From Candidatus Bathyarchaeota archaeon (GTDB taxonomy: Archaea; Thermoproteota; Bathyarchaeia; Bathyarchaeales; Bathyarchaeaceae), in the NCBI GenBank assembly GCA_963697165.1, contig CAVOMX010000012.1:96001-160000 (forward strand): a stretch of 64,000 nucleotides of DNA, written 5' to 3'. Below the pieces are notes generated by a model. That model saw only the letters and a list, made by a program, of their open reading frames with translations. It made no database searches and was not told the DNA's origin. Position numbers and translations under genes: made by a program. Shown here one piece after another: positions 50,360-57,765 of the stretch. Every line of letters starts with the position of its first letter. Positions within the stretch are counted from its first letter, which is position 1.

Positions 50360-51846
50360 ATGAATGGGCAAAGAAAATTTCAGGAACCTAGAGCATCTGT
50401 TCCCATCGAAAAAATTGACGATTACCACTGGCAAATACCCACAAGCTACAAGTCTGGTATGCGTGTTCCCGGTATGGTCTTTGCTGACGAGCAACTCATC
50501 GAAAAAATAAAACTGGATCGAACACTTGATCAGTGCGCCAATGTTGCTCACTTACCCGGAATTTACAAGTATGCGATTACGTTGCCTGATGGTCATGAAG
50601 GGTATGGTTTTCCGATAGGCGGGGTTGCGGCTACAGACTATAATGAAGGCGTGATTAAGTCCAGGGGGCGTGGGCTACGACATCAACTGTGGTGTGCGTC
50701 TATTAACAACGAACCTTTCTGAAAGCGATGCTAGACCATACCTTGCTGGCCTCACCAACTCCATATTCAATAATGTTCCCAGCGGACTTGGTAGCTGCCG
50801 CAAAGACTTCCGACTGAACCTGCATGAACTTGACCAGCTGGTTACGGAGGGGGTGTCTTGGGCAGTAGATAAGGGGCTTGGACGGTCTGAAGACATCAAA
50901 CACTGTGAAGAAGAGGGATGTATGGAAGGCGCTAACCCTGACAAGATTTCGTCAAAAGCCAAGCAAAGGGGTCTTCCTCAAAGTGGCACCCTCGGTTCAG
51001 GAAACCATTTCCTAGAAATCGGAAAGGTTGACAAAATCTACGACAATAAAGTGGCTAAAACCTTCGGCGTCACACATGAGGGACAAGTTACAGTTCTGAT
51101 TCACTGTGGCTCACGCGGATTCGGACATCAAATCTGTTCAGACTATCTGCGTGTCATGGAACGAGCCGTCCAAAAATATGGCATCTCATATACCCGACAG
51201 GGAACTCGCCTGTGCACCAGCCACAAGCAACGAAGCCCAAGATTATTATCAGGCTATGGCATGCGCAGTCAACTACGCTTTTGTGAATCGTCAAGTTATC
51301 ACACATTGGGTTCGCCAGAGCTTTGAAGAGATTTTCAAGAGATCAGCGGAAGACTTGGGTTTGAATCTGGTCTACGATGTTGCCCATAATATCGCAAAGA
51401 GTGAAGAACACACTATAGACGGGAAGCGAACCAAAGTTTGGACTCACAGGAAAGGAGCGACAAGATCGTTTCCGCCTGGACACAAGGACGTTCCAGCCGA
51501 TTACCGTTCTGTGGGACAGCCTGTCATTATACCCGGAAGTATGGGCACAAGCTCGTGGCTGCTGGCGGGAACGGCTAAAGCTATGGATGTTTCTTTTGGT
51601 TCCACGGCTCATGGAGCTGGTCGCATGTTGAGCAGATCGGCTGCGAAGCGAAGGTTCTGGGGCGGAGACGTAAAACAGGCGCTGGAGGGTCGAGGAATCG
51701 TTGTCAGAGCAGCCAGTTCTACTATTTTGGCTGAAGAAGCTGATTTAGCATACAAGGATGTGGACAGAGTAGTGGACGTGAGCGATAAGGCGGGAATCGC
51801 AACCCGTGTTGCCCGCTTGGTTCCACTGGGAGTCGTAAAAGGATAA
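50360..51846 (+). CDS. rtcB: RNA-splicing ligase RtcB (indels at ~50658 and ~51190)
   Basis: [60 protein letters not shown]. Confidence 0.96.
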
Positions 51847-51855
51847 AACTGGCAT

Positions 51856-52750
51856 TTAGTGCTTCTGTTGGGTTCGCAGTAGATGGAACAGGTATTCCTG
51901 TGCGTATCCTGCATATCTTCCAAAATATTGTCTCCCAAAGGAGCCTATAGTTTCGTATTCCTTAGGTGTGGGTGAGCCTTTGCTGGCGACTCGTTTAATG
52001 AACGAAGAGTCAAAGTGGCAGGTATAGAGACTTGTGGCTGCCCTCTTCATCCATACATCTATAGGAAAAGCCTCAAGCTTCTCTAAAGAAAAGAGAAGAA
52101 CGCAGTCAGCAACTTTATGTCCCACTCCTGGTAAACCCAAAAGGGTTCGTTTAGCCTCCAAATAGTCCATGTTCTTCAAAGACTCAAGAGATAGTTCCCC
52201 GTTGTCAATCATTTTTGCGGTCTCCAAAACTCGCTCAGCCCTGAAACCTAAACCACAACTTCGCAATTCTTCGATGCTGACTTGTGCTAGGTCTTCTGGC
52301 TTCGGAAAAGTGTAAAAAGTGTAGACGATCAAACGCCAACTTTTTTCCAAACTGTATGCAGATGCTATTGATCATTCTTTTGATGGCTGGGATACTCTTG
52401 TATGTTGCACAGATGTAAGAGATGAGGCACTCCCACGGTTCTTGCCTGCATAATCTCAGTCCACAGAAAAGTCTGATTGCCTCTCGAATATTCTCATCTT
52501 TGTTTATCTCAGACAGAATAGATGCTAAGTCATCGTCTAATCTCAAGTAATTCTCGATAAATCCGTGTTTTTTTGTTTCTGGAAAAATCTGAAAAATCAG
52601 CCTTTCGTTGCACTGTTTTATCTTAATCACTCTGTCTGCAACAGTGCCATACCACCAATCATCCAGTTTTTTCCATCGAAAAAGTTGACCACAATTCAAG
52701 GTGTGCTCTAAGCTGAAGGGACCAGATGACCTGTTCAGCTTAAGTTCCAT
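51856..52750 (-). CDS. ogg1: 8-oxoguanine DNA glycosylase/AP lyase, OGG1-like (indel at ~52318)
   Basis: CGQLFRW, QEPWECLISYI, GLGFRA, LPGVGHKVADCV...FPIDVW, AGYAQEYLF. Confidence 0.9.
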
Positions 52751-52760
52751 GGCGTTTCCT

Positions 52761-53358
52761 TCAGCAAGTTGGTTCAGTCTGCAGGAACGGATTGTGCCTC
52801 TTTTCGTCGCCTATGGTAGTGAATGACTCGTGTCCGGGATATACCTTGAAACTGTCGGGCAAACACAAAAGCTTGGTCTTAATCGACCGTATTATCTCTT
52901 CGAATGATCCTCCGGGAAAGTCGGTTCTGCCTATAGAACCCGCGAAAAGTGTATCTCCAGTAAAAACAATGTTGTCTCCTACGAGGCATATGCCGCCTTT
53001 TGTGTGTCCGGGCGTGTGAAGAACAGCCAGCTTGAAATTGCCTACATGTATGCCGTCTCCGTCGTGGAGCTTCTGGTCTGCATTTACACGTCCAGAATGG
53101 CTTTCATGGATAAGTATGAGCGCATCTGTTGCCTCTTTGATGAAACCGTTTCCGGATATGTGATCGGGGTGACCATGAGTGTTTATGACATATTTTACGT
53201 GGAAGCCGTTCTGTTTTATGAAATCCAAAATCTCTTCTAGCTTCATTTTTGGTTTCTAATCCCGGGTCAATAATCGCCGCTTCTTTGGTTTCTTCGCAGC
53301 CTGCGACATAACAGTTTGTGGATAACCACCCAACCTTGAAGCATTCTATGATCATCAA
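52761..53358 (-). CDS. MBL-fold metallo-hydrolase (glyoxalase II-like; indel at ~53240)
   Basis: TNCY, IDPG, THGHPDH, HTPGHT, GDTLF, PGH. Confidence 0.92.
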
Positions 53359-53509
53359 TATACCTCACTGAAAGTTGACGACAACTCCTATTCAAAAAGG
53401 GAACCACATTATAAAACATACTGAATTTTAGAGCAGAGTATCTTCAGATTAACTCTCTAAACTAGATTTCATGTAAAGTCTTAATTCACACGCTTTAGTA
53501 TATGATCTG

Positions 53510-54229
53510 GTGGAATGGAAGATGAGTCAGCAGGCTTGGGAAGGACTTATTCAAAAATTGGCTAGAACCGGTATCCTCCAGTCGCCAAATGTCATCAGAG
53601 CATTGCGTCAAGTTTCACGGAGCCAATTTCTTCCTGAAAACGTGAAAGCTAATGCAGCCATGGACTGCCCGCTTCCGATAGGGTCAGGCCAAACAGCTTC
53701 CGCGCCTCTCAGTTTACACAGTGTGGTCAACTGGGCGAAACATGGTAGCTATAATGGATGAAGCCCTTGATTTGGAAGTGGGACACAAGGTTCTGGAGGT
53801 GGGTGCAGGTTCAGGCTGGCACGCTGCCACCATAGCTGAGATAGTGGCTCCGTCGGATGCGCCTAAGGAAGAGTGGGGACACGTCTACACGGTGGAGAGA
53901 ATACCAGAGTTAGCCGCGTTTGCCAAAGACAACATTACGAAGGCAGGGTATGGAAACCGAGTCACCGTAATCCATCAGGATGGAACATTAGGGTACATCC
54001 TGAAGAGACTCCATATGATCGTATCCTAGTTGCGGCGGCTGGTCCAGAGGTGCCCAAACCTTTGATTCAACAGTTAGGCGAGGATGGAATCCTTCTTGTT
54101 CCTGTGGGAGGCGCCCAATTCTACCAAACTTTGATTAGACTCAGAAAAGAGAACGGAAAAACAATTGAGGAAAACTTGGGAGGAGTCGCCTTCGTACCTC
54201 TAATCGGTAAATACGGCTTCGAACCGTAA
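53510..54229 (+). CDS. pcm: Protein-L-isoaspartate O-methyltransferase, interrupted by a BHB intron (plus an indel at ~53997)
   Basis: [53 protein letters not shown]. Confidence 0.93.
53709..53739 (+). other. 31-nt bulge-helix-bulge intron in pcm mRNA
   Basis: Central helix CGCC/GGCG, 3-nt bulges TC^T and AA^A, intron stem CAGTT/AACTG; removal gives CCT CAC ATG (P-H-M) in frame. Confidence 0.85.
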
Positions 54230-54235
54230 ATGACA

Positions 54236-55270
54236 CTAGCCGAACCACGTTTCAAGAGTTGTTTTGCTTTTTGCTTCCTTTAGTCCTTCAGCCATTTTGT
54301 TGAGGGTTCTACGCACCCGATCCTCAGAAAAGTCTCTTTCGCGGCAAAGAAAGTCTACTACACCATCGACGTTGGGCGCTTTCCATTCCAGCTTATAGTT
54401 GTCCGTAACTTTTGGGTGAAGAAAGATTTCCCGTATTCTTTTAGGTTCAGCCGGAAATGTGGCATCTTCCAACTCAGGTATAGCCTCTTCGATGCTTCCA
54501 TGTTTCTTGATCAGTTTCAGAGCAGTTTTTGGTCCTATTCCCTTCACGCCATTAGGATTAAAGTCCGTTCCCACCAGAATCGCCACATCTATGAGCTGCT
54601 CACGCGTGACATCCAAATCTTTGAGAACCTGATCAAGTTTCATAATCTCCGGCACAACTTCAACATAAACATTCTTTCTTGGAACCTTTCGTCTGCCACT
54701 TATAGTCACGTTTCTCACAAGAGCAGTTGCGCCAAAGAGAAGACTATCGTAGTCTTGGCTGGCACAGTAGTCAGCATCACCCTTGATTGTTAGGTAGGCA
54801 GCTTGGGATTCACCTTCAGACGGCGCTTGAATCCATGGCACGCCCAATTCAGTGAGAAGCCGTTTCGAATCATCTGGCATGTAGTCCTTTAGCTTAGAAG
54901 TCATTTGAGCATAGCTTCTAGCCTTCTCCATTTTTCCTTCCATTATAGCTGTTTCATACCTGACAAGAGCCTCCGCCTTGACTTTGGCTCTGCGTTTAAT
55001 CTCCGCCTCTTTGAGGGCAGGCGGAGCCCCATCAAAAACATAGGCAACCTTCATGCCCATCTCAACAAGATTAGCAGTTCTGTAGAATAACCCACTAAGA
55101 TGACTGGTTATCCTGCCAGAACGATCCTTCAAAGGTGTGCCATCTGGCTGACGGATGATCGCCAAAAACTGGTAAAGGGCATTGTATGCGTCGATTGCTA
55201 CAGTCTTTCCGCTCAGGCTCTTGAAATCAACCTTTGTCTTAGGTATCAATACCCTCAAATTTACGCCCAA
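54236..55270 (-). CDS. fen1: Flap endonuclease 1
   Basis: AIDAYNALYQFL, VFDG, SEGESQ, SQDYDSLLFG, GTDFN.GVKGIGPKTA, C-terminal PIP-like TTLETWF. Confidence 0.96.
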   Translation of the reverse strand: MGVNLRVLIPKTKVDFKSLSGKTVAIDAYNALYQFLAIIRQPDGTPLKDRSGRITSHLSGLFYRTANLVEMGMKVAYVFDGAPPALKEAEIKRRAKVKAEALVRYETAIMEGKMEKARSYAQMTSKLKDYMPDDSKRLLTELGVPWIQAPSEGESQAAYLTIKGDADYCASQDYDSLLFGATALVRNVTISGRRKVPRKNVYVEVVPEIMKLDQVLKDLDVTREQLIDVAILVGTDFNPNGVKGIGPKTALKLIKKHGSIEEAIPELEDATFPAEPKRIREIFLHPKVTDNYKLEWKAPNVDGVVDFLCRERDFSEDRVRRTLNKMAEGLKEAKSKTTLETWFG

Positions 55271-55327
55271 AGTTATCTGCCACCAGATACTGGTTAAAGG
55301 CTGAGCCACGAAGATGCTCGAGGGTGG

Positions 55328-55590: not shown

Positions 55591-57765
55591 CTATGCCACA
55601 GGCGTCGTGGGCTTCTTCAACTGTCGAACATGCTTCATGAAGCCCTTATACCAAGCCTCCATGTTCGGCATTATAGATGGCCCAATCTTTTCAATGGCTA
55701 TCTTGAAGTCGTTGGCATCAACTTCCTTGGCATTTATGTCCGTCCGCAGGGCATTCAGTCCAGCCTCTCTACAAAGCGCCTCGATGTCCGCCCCCGAATA
55801 CATCTTCGTTATGGTAGCCAAATTGGACAAATCCACATCTTTTGCCAGCGGCATGTCCTTAGTGTAGAGTTTGAAGATGTTTTGTCTACTCTCTTGGTCG
55901 GGTTCTGGAACGTATATCAAGCGGTCAAACCTTCCTGGTCGAAGAATCGCGGGATCCACAATGTCTGGCCTGTTTGTCGCAGCGATTATAACAACATCCT
56001 CCAAAGAGATAAGTCCATCCATCTCCGTTAGAAGTTGGCTGATAACCCGCTCTGTAACTCCACTGTCTGAGTAACCCATTCCTCGTCCGGGAACTAGAGA
56101 ATCAAATTCGTCAAAGAATATGACAGTTGGTGAAGCCATCCTTGCTTTCCGGAAAACTTCGCGGATAGCCTTCTCTGATTCACCTACCCATTTGGAGAAG
56201 ACTTCTGGACCCTTTATGGTTATGAAGTTTGCTTCACTCTCTGTGGCTACTGCCCTAGCTAGCATTGTCTTTCCACATCCAGGAGGTCCGTAGAGCATGA
56301 TTCCCTTTGGTGGTCGTATACCCATTCGAGTGAAAACGTCTGGGTTTTTGAGGGGCCACTCCACAGCCTCTATGAGGTCCTCTTTCACGTCATCTAAGCC
56401 GCCTATGTCTGTCCAACGAACCGTAGGTACTTCGATGTAGACTTCTCTCATGGCCGTCGGCGTGATTTCGCGGAAAGCGTTTAAGAAAGTCTTCCATTCG
56501 AACCTCCATTTTATCCAAAACATTAGGAGGAACACGCTCTTCCTCTAGATTTATTTCTGGTAGGTATCTGCGCAACGCTTTCATGGCTGTTTCGCGTCCC
56601 AATGCGGACAAGTCGGCTCCTGTGTAACCGTGAGACATGTTTGGAGAGCTTATCCAAATCAACATCTTCTTTTAGGGGCATGCCTCTGGTGTGAATCTGA
56701 AGTACTTCAAATCGTCCTTTTTTGTCGGGTACGCCTATTTCAATTTCTCGGTCAAAACGTCCAGGTCGTCTCAAAGCAGGGTCTAAGGCTTCAGGCCTGT
56801 TTGTGGCGCCTATTACAATGAGGTAGCCTCTTCCTGAAAGACCATCCATCAAAGCTAGAAGCTGAGCAACAACCCGTCTCTCAACTTCTCCTGTAACCTC
56901 TTCTCTTTTAGGTGCGATTGCATCCAGCTCGTCTATGAAGACGATGCTGGGAGCGTTCTTTTGAGCCTGCTGGAACATTTCGCGGAGTCTAGCCTCAGAT
57001 TCGCCGTAAAATTTGCTCATTATTTCTGGACCGTTTATTGAGTAGAAGTTAGCCTCAGACTCGTTTGCAACTGCTCGGGCTAGAAGGGTTTTTCCACATC
57101 CCGGCGGTCCATGTAACAGAACTCCTTTTGGAGGATCAATTCCAAGCCTTTGGAAAAGTTCTGGGTGCCGCAGCGGAAGTTCAACCATTTCTCGAATCCG
57201 CTGAATCTCCTCCTCGAGTCCTCCTATATCCTCGTATGTTGTGCGAGGCAAGCCTTTGGTTTCAGGAGCTGGTTCAGCCATTATCTGGAGGCTTGTGCCG
57301 TGGCTGATTCTCACGATTCCGTGAGGACGAGATTTGGTTACTCGGAAGGGTATGGCATGTCCTAGCATCATAACTAGGGTGGTGTCTCCTTCCACGAATG
57401 TTCTTTCCATAAGTCGGTTTTTCACAAAGTTTGTGAAGTCTTCATCAACATTTAGTTTCATGTCTATGGGAGCTAAAACTACGGTTGTGGCGTTGGTTAC
57501 ATTTGCAGATCGAATTACTACTAGTTCATGCATAGCAACTCCAGCATTTTTGCGTGTGAATCCGTCGATTCGGATAATGTCTCTGTTTTGGTCTTCAGAG
57601 TATGCTGGCCATGCTATGGCGGCGGTGTTTCTTTTTCCAACAATTTCTATTACGTCGCCTGCTGAGATGCCTAAGTTTTTGCATGGTTTGCTGATCGATT
57701 CGGGCGATTCCTCGATAAACGTCACGTTGTCGAGCGTCTTCTACTTTAAGTTGTACTTCGCTCAC
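55591..57765 (-). CDS. cdc48: AAA+ ATPase Cdc48/VAT (several indels)
   Basis: N-domain plus two AAA modules with GPPGCGKT, Walker B and RPGRFDR. Confidence 0.95.

Follow-up and report, generated by a model that had tools for sequence, protein, structure and literature searches.

We propose that the pcm messenger RNA of a bathyarchaeial genome carries a real intron of the tRNA type, built on a motif of bulge-helix-bulge (BHB) form and very probably spliced by the endonuclease EndA and the RNA ligase RtcB. The window analyzed here, a stretch of DNA of 64,000 nucleotides, had been singled out in an initial annotation for tRNA-type splicing of pcm mRNA, and this reading is supported by covarying inserts at the same site in related genes, by the restoration of the SAPHM motif in 205/205 alleles, by purifying selection, by the presence of a suitable EndA and by two RNA contigs that contain the spliced junction. 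The pcm intron appears by analogy to work like the known intron of the cbf5 mRNA, in a new gene and in two phyla.

The interrupted gene is identified by its sequence as pcm, the predicted gene for protein-L-isoaspartate O-methyltransferase (PCMT/PIMT). Exon 1 (53522..53708, plus strand), which ends in QTASAP and the first base of a His codon, covers positions 4-59 of the Pfam PCMT model, and exon 2 (53740..54229, plus strand), which begins with the AC of that codon followed by MVAIM and contains the SAM-binding motifs, covers positions 61-137 and 138-208. Together the pieces span model positions 4-208 and include both QTxSAPHM and the SAM-binding motifs, and only the His at position 60 is missing between them. 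The claim that a 31-nt insert at 53709-53739 splits the His codon of SAPHM is thus exact in all its coordinates, the gap in the Pfam match being precisely that residue. An intronless allele from the same genus matches solved archaeal PIMT structures with E-values of 1e-56 and 3e-52. Relatives, whose proteins start MSQQ or MTQQ, suggest ATG 53522 as the start of the gene, and GTG 53510 is the start given by the ORF finder. The unspliced reading frame does stop at 53761 as had been described, but the length of 83 aa assigned to it holds only from GTG 53510 and becomes 79 aa from the probable ATG 53522. Unspliced pcm RNA would yield a truncated peptide that lacks the SAM-binding domain. We take the SAPHM motif to lie in or beside pre-motif I of the enzyme. 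Pre-motif I lines the substrate site of PIMT, according to excerpts of a published study (PMC12590147).

The BHB motif (53702..53741, plus strand) is closed by the pair G53702-C53741 and has its cuts after 53708 and 53739. Within the intron (53709..53739, plus strand) lie an inner hairpin (53710-53733), the strand 53734-37 that forms the 3' side of the central helix, and two of the three bases of the 3' bulge. The central helix pairs CGCC (53703-06) with GGCG (53734-37), the bulges are UCU (53707-09) and AAA (53738-40), and the intron stem is CAGUU/AACUG; helix, both bulges, intron stem and closing pair were all verified in the bases as first reported. A cut after the second base of each bulge gives Pro-His-Met and restores the frame and SAPHM, as had been predicted, and the same rule applied to the 205 alleles yields SAPHM in every one. 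The description of the motif as a textbook BHB fits the 4-bp helix, the bulges and the intron stem, but not the exon-side stem, which is a single G-C pair that is disfavored in free RNA, and the AGCU/AGCU extension proposed for this stem is not conserved in our alignment (A1). The 81-nt region of the window folds no better than shuffled sequences (z 0.18), and its exact BHB conformer, at -13.2 kcal/mol, lies 2.9 above the minimum of -16.1 kcal/mol reached by a form with a 5-nt 3' bulge. The ensemble probability of the closing G-C pair is 0.01 in the window and averages 0.02 over 141 alleles, and the mean z of folding over these 141 alleles is -2.3, with 77 below -2. Look-alikes of the BHB geometry number 16,443 in the 2-Mb genome under a loose definition and 1,730 under a strict one, and since the region is no more stable than its shuffles and the strict look-alikes are this numerous, shape alone is weak evidence. 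It is conservation, not shape, that places the site above chance in our sequence comparisons. No Rfam match at E <= 1 was found in 53400-54300, and a group I or group II self-splicing intron is ruled out, as the insert has 31 nt and the core of such ribozymes has hundreds of bases.

Conservation was assessed over 205 distinct intron alleles of 21-57 nt from Bathyarchaeia, other Thermoproteota and Asgard, which are related by descent, such that the counts overstate the evidence. Alleles found by DNA pattern fit the geometry partly by construction, and the 142 alleles found by protein search without a DNA pattern are reported apart; in 142/142 of these the helix is paired and the cut rule leads to SAPHM. 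Over the full set the central helix pairs in 205/205 alleles, as CGCC/GGCG in 184, CACC/GGTG in 18 and CGCC/GGTG in 3, and the only free position in the helix is the wobble base of the Ala codon, where the 18 alleles show a compensatory change from G-C to A-U and the 3 have a G-U pair. The closing pair is G-C in 203 alleles and G-U in two, and 995 of the 1025 pairs in the first five positions of the intron stem are formed, with covariation. Among the 52 distinct alleles of 31 nt, 95% of the cells pair, double changes occur in 9 of the 13 pairs, and covariation scores 0.38 as against 0.19 for shuffled and at most 0.12 for slid alignments; in pairing and covariation they exceed all 500 shuffles, as well as all slid controls, a result that is inflated by kinship.

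Because of the helix pairing, the synonymous codons on the exon side of SAPHM are frozen. Ala GCY and Pro CCS are each absent from the intron alleles (0/205) but are used in 14/45 and 16/45 of the intronless SAPHM alleles, respectively, and the His codon at the site is CAT in 2/205 intron alleles compared with 17/45 intronless ones, while elsewhere in exon 2 CAT encodes 328 of 789 His residues. The BHB offset is the sole excision offset that restores SAPHM in 78/205 alleles, including that of the window. Intron lengths occupy all three classes modulo three, and an in-frame stop is present inside 38/39 introns with a length divisible by three versus 116/166 of the others; because 38 of those 39 hold such a stop, unspliced pcm RNA almost never reads through. 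The one in-frame intron without a stop (27 nt, locus L153) would if unspliced add nine residues at the motif, within an open frame of 265 aa.

These data also bear on the idea that pcm is a split gene that is expressed without splicing, in which the insert terminates exon 1, translation restarts at the ATG of exon 2 and the two chains assemble into PIMT. In its favor, AC-ATG opens exon 2 in nearly all alleles, a stop comes early in most inserts, GGYG stands 4 nt ahead of the exon 2 ATG, and the residue after Pro would still be His without splicing in 112/205 alleles. However, this residue would be Leu, Gln or Arg in 93/205 alleles, the window included, the position of the insert stop is scattered between 43 nt upstream and 498 nt downstream of the exon 2 ATG, GGCG/GGTG follows the wobble base of the Ala codon and not the anti-Shine-Dalgarno sequence, the frozen His, Ala and Pro codons would be unexplained, and the RNA contigs contain the junction, all of which make a split gene very unlikely. 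A hairpin with an early stop resembles the signals for ribosomal bypass. The pcm insert has this form, and alleles with an ACA bulge repeat CAC at both ends of the insert, but the UCU-bulge class to which the window belongs has no matching take-off codon, and bypass or recoding across the hairpin in the absence of RNA splicing would explain neither the helix between exon and intron nor the closing pair, nor the junction in the RNA contigs, and is scarcely credible.

Both exons of pcm are evidently under purifying selection, with dN/dS values of 0.19 (exon 1) and 0.09 (exon 2) among intron-bearing alleles (120 pairs) and of 0.17 and 0.13 among intronless alleles (21 pairs). This contradicts the view that the insert has killed a dispensable gene. 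The same view, or that of an error-prone assembly, draws on the several small frameshifts in the window, where rtcB is in three pieces and pcm has a second break, and on the one relative (L073) that has both the intron and a damaged exon 2. The insert is nevertheless seen in independent assemblies, including a DNA locus (L293) that differs from the window in 5/216 bases, 43/46 intron alleles have an open exon 2 of 160-167 aa, and a search of the 81%-complete genome gave no other full-length pcm. The independent assemblies, the open exon 2 and the purifying selection already largely refute a dead gene or an artifact, which we regard as extremely improbable. The second break, two extra nucleotides near 53997 (53995..54000, plus strand), lies outside the intron system; these nucleotides are missing from two contigs of the RNA runs, the closest DNA loci (L243, L291 and L293) read through, and they are most likely an assembly error. 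The genes for RtcB, an 8-oxoguanine glycosylase (51856-52750), a metallo-hydrolase (52761-53358) and Cdc48 (55591-57725) are each found in overlapping ORF pieces, which fits small assembly errors. In L073, a 22-nt intron is followed directly by the in-frame loss of a SAM-binding stretch, consistent with a pseudogene or a misassembly.

Four metatranscriptome runs, assembled as contigs, were searched for the spliced junction, which in RNA runs alone has the same sequence as an intronless allele. The exact joint of 53708 to 53740 that had been anticipated was present in two of the four runs, but an intronless allele would give the same joint, and such alleles occur in the genus. One contig of 245 nt (X16) joins 53708 to 53740 with 0 differences from the window in 107 upstream bases and 3 in 138 downstream, and in a second (X20) the joint is identical and 247 bases contain 9 differences; the depth of the two is low (2.2 and 3.3). 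Unspliced contigs with 0 (X18) and 3 (X17) differences come from other RNA runs than the spliced contigs. The DNA loci closest to the window all have the intron (L293 with 5/216 differences, L291 and L243 with 22-23/245), the closest intronless DNA locus has 33/245 differences from the window, and all five pairs of loci within five differences share the same intron state. Since an intron-plus/minus pair exists at 10/245, X20 (9/247) is not diagnostic, and only X16 (3/245) is closer than any such pair. Hence X16 is good evidence for the splicing of pcm but falls short of proof, and that from X20 is weak. The pair at 10/245 flanking differences consists of the intronless locus L275 and the intron-bearing L249/L252, and represents a very recent exact loss or an allele replacement.

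The genome is predicted to encode a two-subunit EndA with the crenarchaeal loop. There are two EndA genes, one for an alpha subunit that is closest to the catalytic subunits of Sulfolobus and Aeropyrum and that, in an alignment read by eye, keeps the Lys-Pro-Lys of the loop and residues matching A. pernix K44/R46, Y125, H133, R157, K164 and W183, and one for a second subunit in which no catalytic His is seen by eye and which is taken to be structural. The loop and active-site residues of the A. pernix EndA are tied to catalysis and broad specificity in excerpts of the work on that enzyme (PMC3241643), and an EndA of broad specificity would suit a motif with a single pair in its exon-side stem. 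At the first position of the 5' bulge the window has U, compared with the A given in the same excerpts for the cation-pi site of EndA (PMC3241643). The gene for RtcB (50360..51846, plus strand) is located 1.7 kb from pcm, in three overlapping ORF pieces that match Pfam RtcB 1-44, 46-218 and 202-426. In the mechanism that we infer, base pairing between the Ala-Pro codons of SAPHM and the insert's 3' end would give the 4-bp helix between two 3-nt bulges, together with the intron hairpin, and the weak closing G-C pair would presumably form on the enzyme. An (alpha-beta)2 EndA would then cut after the second base of each bulge and RtcB would join the exons, which would rebuild the His codon (C from exon 1 and AC from exon 2) and the reading frame. 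The intron most likely persists because an inexact loss would break the enzyme, only a base-exact loss leaving PIMT active, while a constitutive EndA keeps the cost of the intron low.

The pcm gene was found in 58 of the 61 relatives searched and was scorable in 57. An insert of 28-46 nt at the same His-codon phase is present in 46 of these and is lacking in 11, namely 8/24 members of the genus of the window and 3/3 of family f6; the alignment of pcm from relatives, which the initial annotation had suggested as a check, gave a same-phase insert in 46/57, and across the alleles the BHB pairs covary, with the helix kept in 205/205. Three further Bathyarchaeia families outside the order carry the insert, at loci chosen for their short frames, and most other Bathyarchaeia families are without it. 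The 52 metagenome loci comprise 35 with the intron, 11 without and six that were dropped as short or poorly scored. A DNA-pattern scan of GTDB gave at least 106 pcm loci among the 119 matches listed, 12 non-pcm matches (including a duplicate of L073) and one short locus having been dropped; the rows of L058 (no motif, contig end), L068 (exon 2 off the contig) and L073 (damaged exon 2) were also dropped. Among the matches listed, the named carriers outside Bathyarchaeia include Baldrarchaeota, two Jordarchaeia, the complete chromosome of Atabeyarchaeia-1 and four genomes titled Thermoproteota, the pcm of one of which groups with Jordarchaeia genes. An unbiased protein search centered on Atabeyarchaeia-1 gave matches in 140/151 genomes of its phylum (inferred to be Asgard), and the intron was verified in 17 of the 140, nearly all others listed having frames of more than 200 aa. 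In Thermoproteota outside the class of the window, nine of about 120 genomes with a match have the intron, and they belong to two families (6/6 and 3/3).

Several loci are distinct in other ways. L237, titled Wukongarchaeum, is on a small contig, and its intron matches that of a Bathyarchaeia-family allele exactly; it is probably misbinned and is not counted as Asgard, and one such locus was left out of the Asgard sample. L064-L070, L044 and L046, mostly from the G+C-rich family f20, have longer introns (34-57 nt) with extended hairpins and an unchanged splice motif. In genus g34 of family f9, pcm was matched with the query used in only 2/12 genomes, most of them more than 90% complete, a possible loss of the gene.

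Trees of pcm need 16 changes of intron state, several of them exact losses inside the genus of the window, and it appears that the intron has been precisely lost many times, also among close relatives. A reverse transcriptase (PF00078) was not found in the 81%-complete genome. Asgard pcm genes with and without the intron are compatible with one clade (p-AU 0.57). Constraining all intron-bearing lineages to group together gives trees that are rejected, with p-AU values of 0.0001 and 0.001 that derive from a quick search over 220 columns and from groups named after the tree had been seen, which makes one recent transfer of the whole gene unlikely; a test of all intron-bearing genes as a single clade is uninformative, since nested losses reject it trivially. 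The convergent neighbor of pcm in the window is fen1 (54236..55309, minus strand; Pfam XPG_N/XPG_I), and among the Asgard loci the two genes are adjacent in 12/14 that bear the intron versus 1/14 that are intronless. Two histories remain, ancient inheritance with many losses or the spread of the intron alone. In the latter a mobile intron would have moved laterally into the motif, through short-patch recombination or with a homing endonuclease supplied in trans, which is compatible with splicing and which we consider possible but doubtful. The patchy distribution points to such spread, with the intron in 17/140 Asgard-phylum genomes, in 9/~120 Thermoproteota outside the class and missing from most other Bathyarchaeia families, as do the 16 changes of state. 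On the other hand, no homing-endonuclease family was found among 132 representatives of neighboring ORFs (106/244 plus 26/34 clusters), and hence none in or beside the intron in the neighbors scanned, the flanks have no LAGLIDADG-like motif, LAGLIDADG_3 (PF14528) was not found in the 81%-complete genome, all introns are of 21-57 nt, and the intron-bearing Asgard loci keep the pcm-fen1 adjacency while transfer of the whole gene is rejected. Both the adjacency and the absence of a homing endonuclease from the neighbors scanned favor inheritance without settling the matter, and vertical descent of the intron from an ancestor of Asgard and Thermoproteota is a plausible reading that we hold tentatively, as close to evenly poised.

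The intron might also act as a regulatory switch that makes the output of PIMT depend on EndA/RtcB activity or on how the weak closing pair folds, for example in heat or in stationary phase. This would be compatible with splicing, and it is suggested by the retention of the intron at one site across two phyla, by the marginal stability of the BHB, which could make splicing conditional, and by the origin of spliced and unspliced contigs from different RNA runs; a role as negative regulator has been proposed for the cbf5 intron in passages of PMC2738675. The repeated exact losses, also in close relatives, argue against a switch, and the unspliced contigs of the RNA runs may be DNA, so that regulation seems rather unlikely. 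That the intron is both ancestral to Thermoproteota and Asgard and, kept at one active-site codon, gates the repair of protein damage through EndA/RtcB is a speculative and quite improbable combination. If true, it would be the archaeal equivalent of XBP1/HAC1-style splicing, found in the lineage from which eukaryotes arose.

The cbf5 pre-mRNA intron was reportedly described by Watanabe in 2002 and by Yoshinari in 2006. As stated in passages of Yokobori 2009 (PMC2738675), it was the only confirmed intron in an archaeal coding sequence in 2009, and unconfirmed further predictions are attributed there to Peng 2004 and Brugger 2006. By 2020 the examples were cbf5 and the 5'-UTR intron of Haloferax HVO_1309, as given in excerpts of Schwarz 2020 (PMC7714728), and the Asgard introns that appear in excerpts of PMC11291895 are in tRNA only. 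No report of a pcm intron was found in the openly accessible literature consulted (PMC12397907 and PMC12918454 among others), and a prior mention elsewhere is possible; 'mRNA' and 'cbf5' are absent from the main text of bioRxiv 10.64898/2026.10.13.758758.

Like the cbf5 intron of Desulfurococcales and Sulfolobales, as described in passages of PMC2738675, the pcm intron is short, lies within the coding sequence, where it interrupts a conserved active-site codon after its first base, has a BHB-like motif that a hetero-oligomeric EndA would cut after base 2 of each bulge, and has been secondarily lost in some lineages. Unlike cbf5, pcm functions in protein repair rather than RNA modification, the codon is that of His rather than a catalytic Asp, the intron is found in two phyla (Bathyarchaeia, other Thermoproteota families and Asgard), and the central helix has no unpaired position in any allele, whereas the same passages call most cbf5 motifs unconventional. 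Moreover, while the splicing of cbf5 is confirmed, that of pcm is proposed here from genomes and metatranscriptome contigs and not from the cDNA of a cultured strain. With the BHB introns of archaeal tRNA and rRNA, several of which occur in tRNA genes of this genome, the pcm intron shares the 3-4-3 geometry, the size range and the proposed enzymes, but it is located in an mRNA, its helix is constrained by codons and its exon-side stem is one pair. The HVO_1309 intron is likewise an mRNA substrate of EndA, although it is in the leader and breaks no frame (excerpts of PMC7714728). In XBP1/HAC1 splicing, as outlined in excerpts of PMC13149111, an endonuclease and a ligase also excise a short intron and switch the frame of a proteostasis-related mRNA, but there IRE1 cuts at stem-loops and is regulated by stress, and the likeness is one of analogy only. 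If pcm is spliced as we propose, then mRNA splicing by EndA/RtcB is neither a one-gene phenomenon nor limited to hot-spring crenarchaea, and splicing of mRNA without a spliceosome is placed in close relatives of eukaryotes. The 205 alleles with their repeated exact losses would provide a natural series for the study of intron gain, intron loss and EndA specificity, and many genomes probably have an intact pcm that their annotation gives as broken.

A genome-wide scan for BHB motifs, which had been suggested as a check, was swamped in its loose form, where 240 of the 16,443 hits pass a weak coding filter, many of them in a high-GC block, but the strict form leaves 9/1,730, with pcm as the only credible case; both are blind to relaxed motifs and to sites near assembly errors. 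Of the eight other strict candidates, four are accounted for by an intact msrA, an intact DUF211 gene, a gene boundary and, in DUF2284, a simple frameshift, and the remaining four lack a protein family that continues through the site, with three of these four scanned. The cbf5 gene of this genome has an open frame of 349 aa, with one TAA inside the span of the cbf5 match, and the frames of rnhB, carB and gatE are long and open. A 14-kb block that lies outside the window, at about 105000-119000 of contig C9, has 62-75% G+C, compared with about 41% for the genome, and looks foreign or misjoined. At 32371-32463 of contig C22, ARAGORN predicts a 'Stop' tRNA with a 16-nt intron whose body is like that of the Lys tRNA on contig C11, which probably reflects a misplaced intron boundary.
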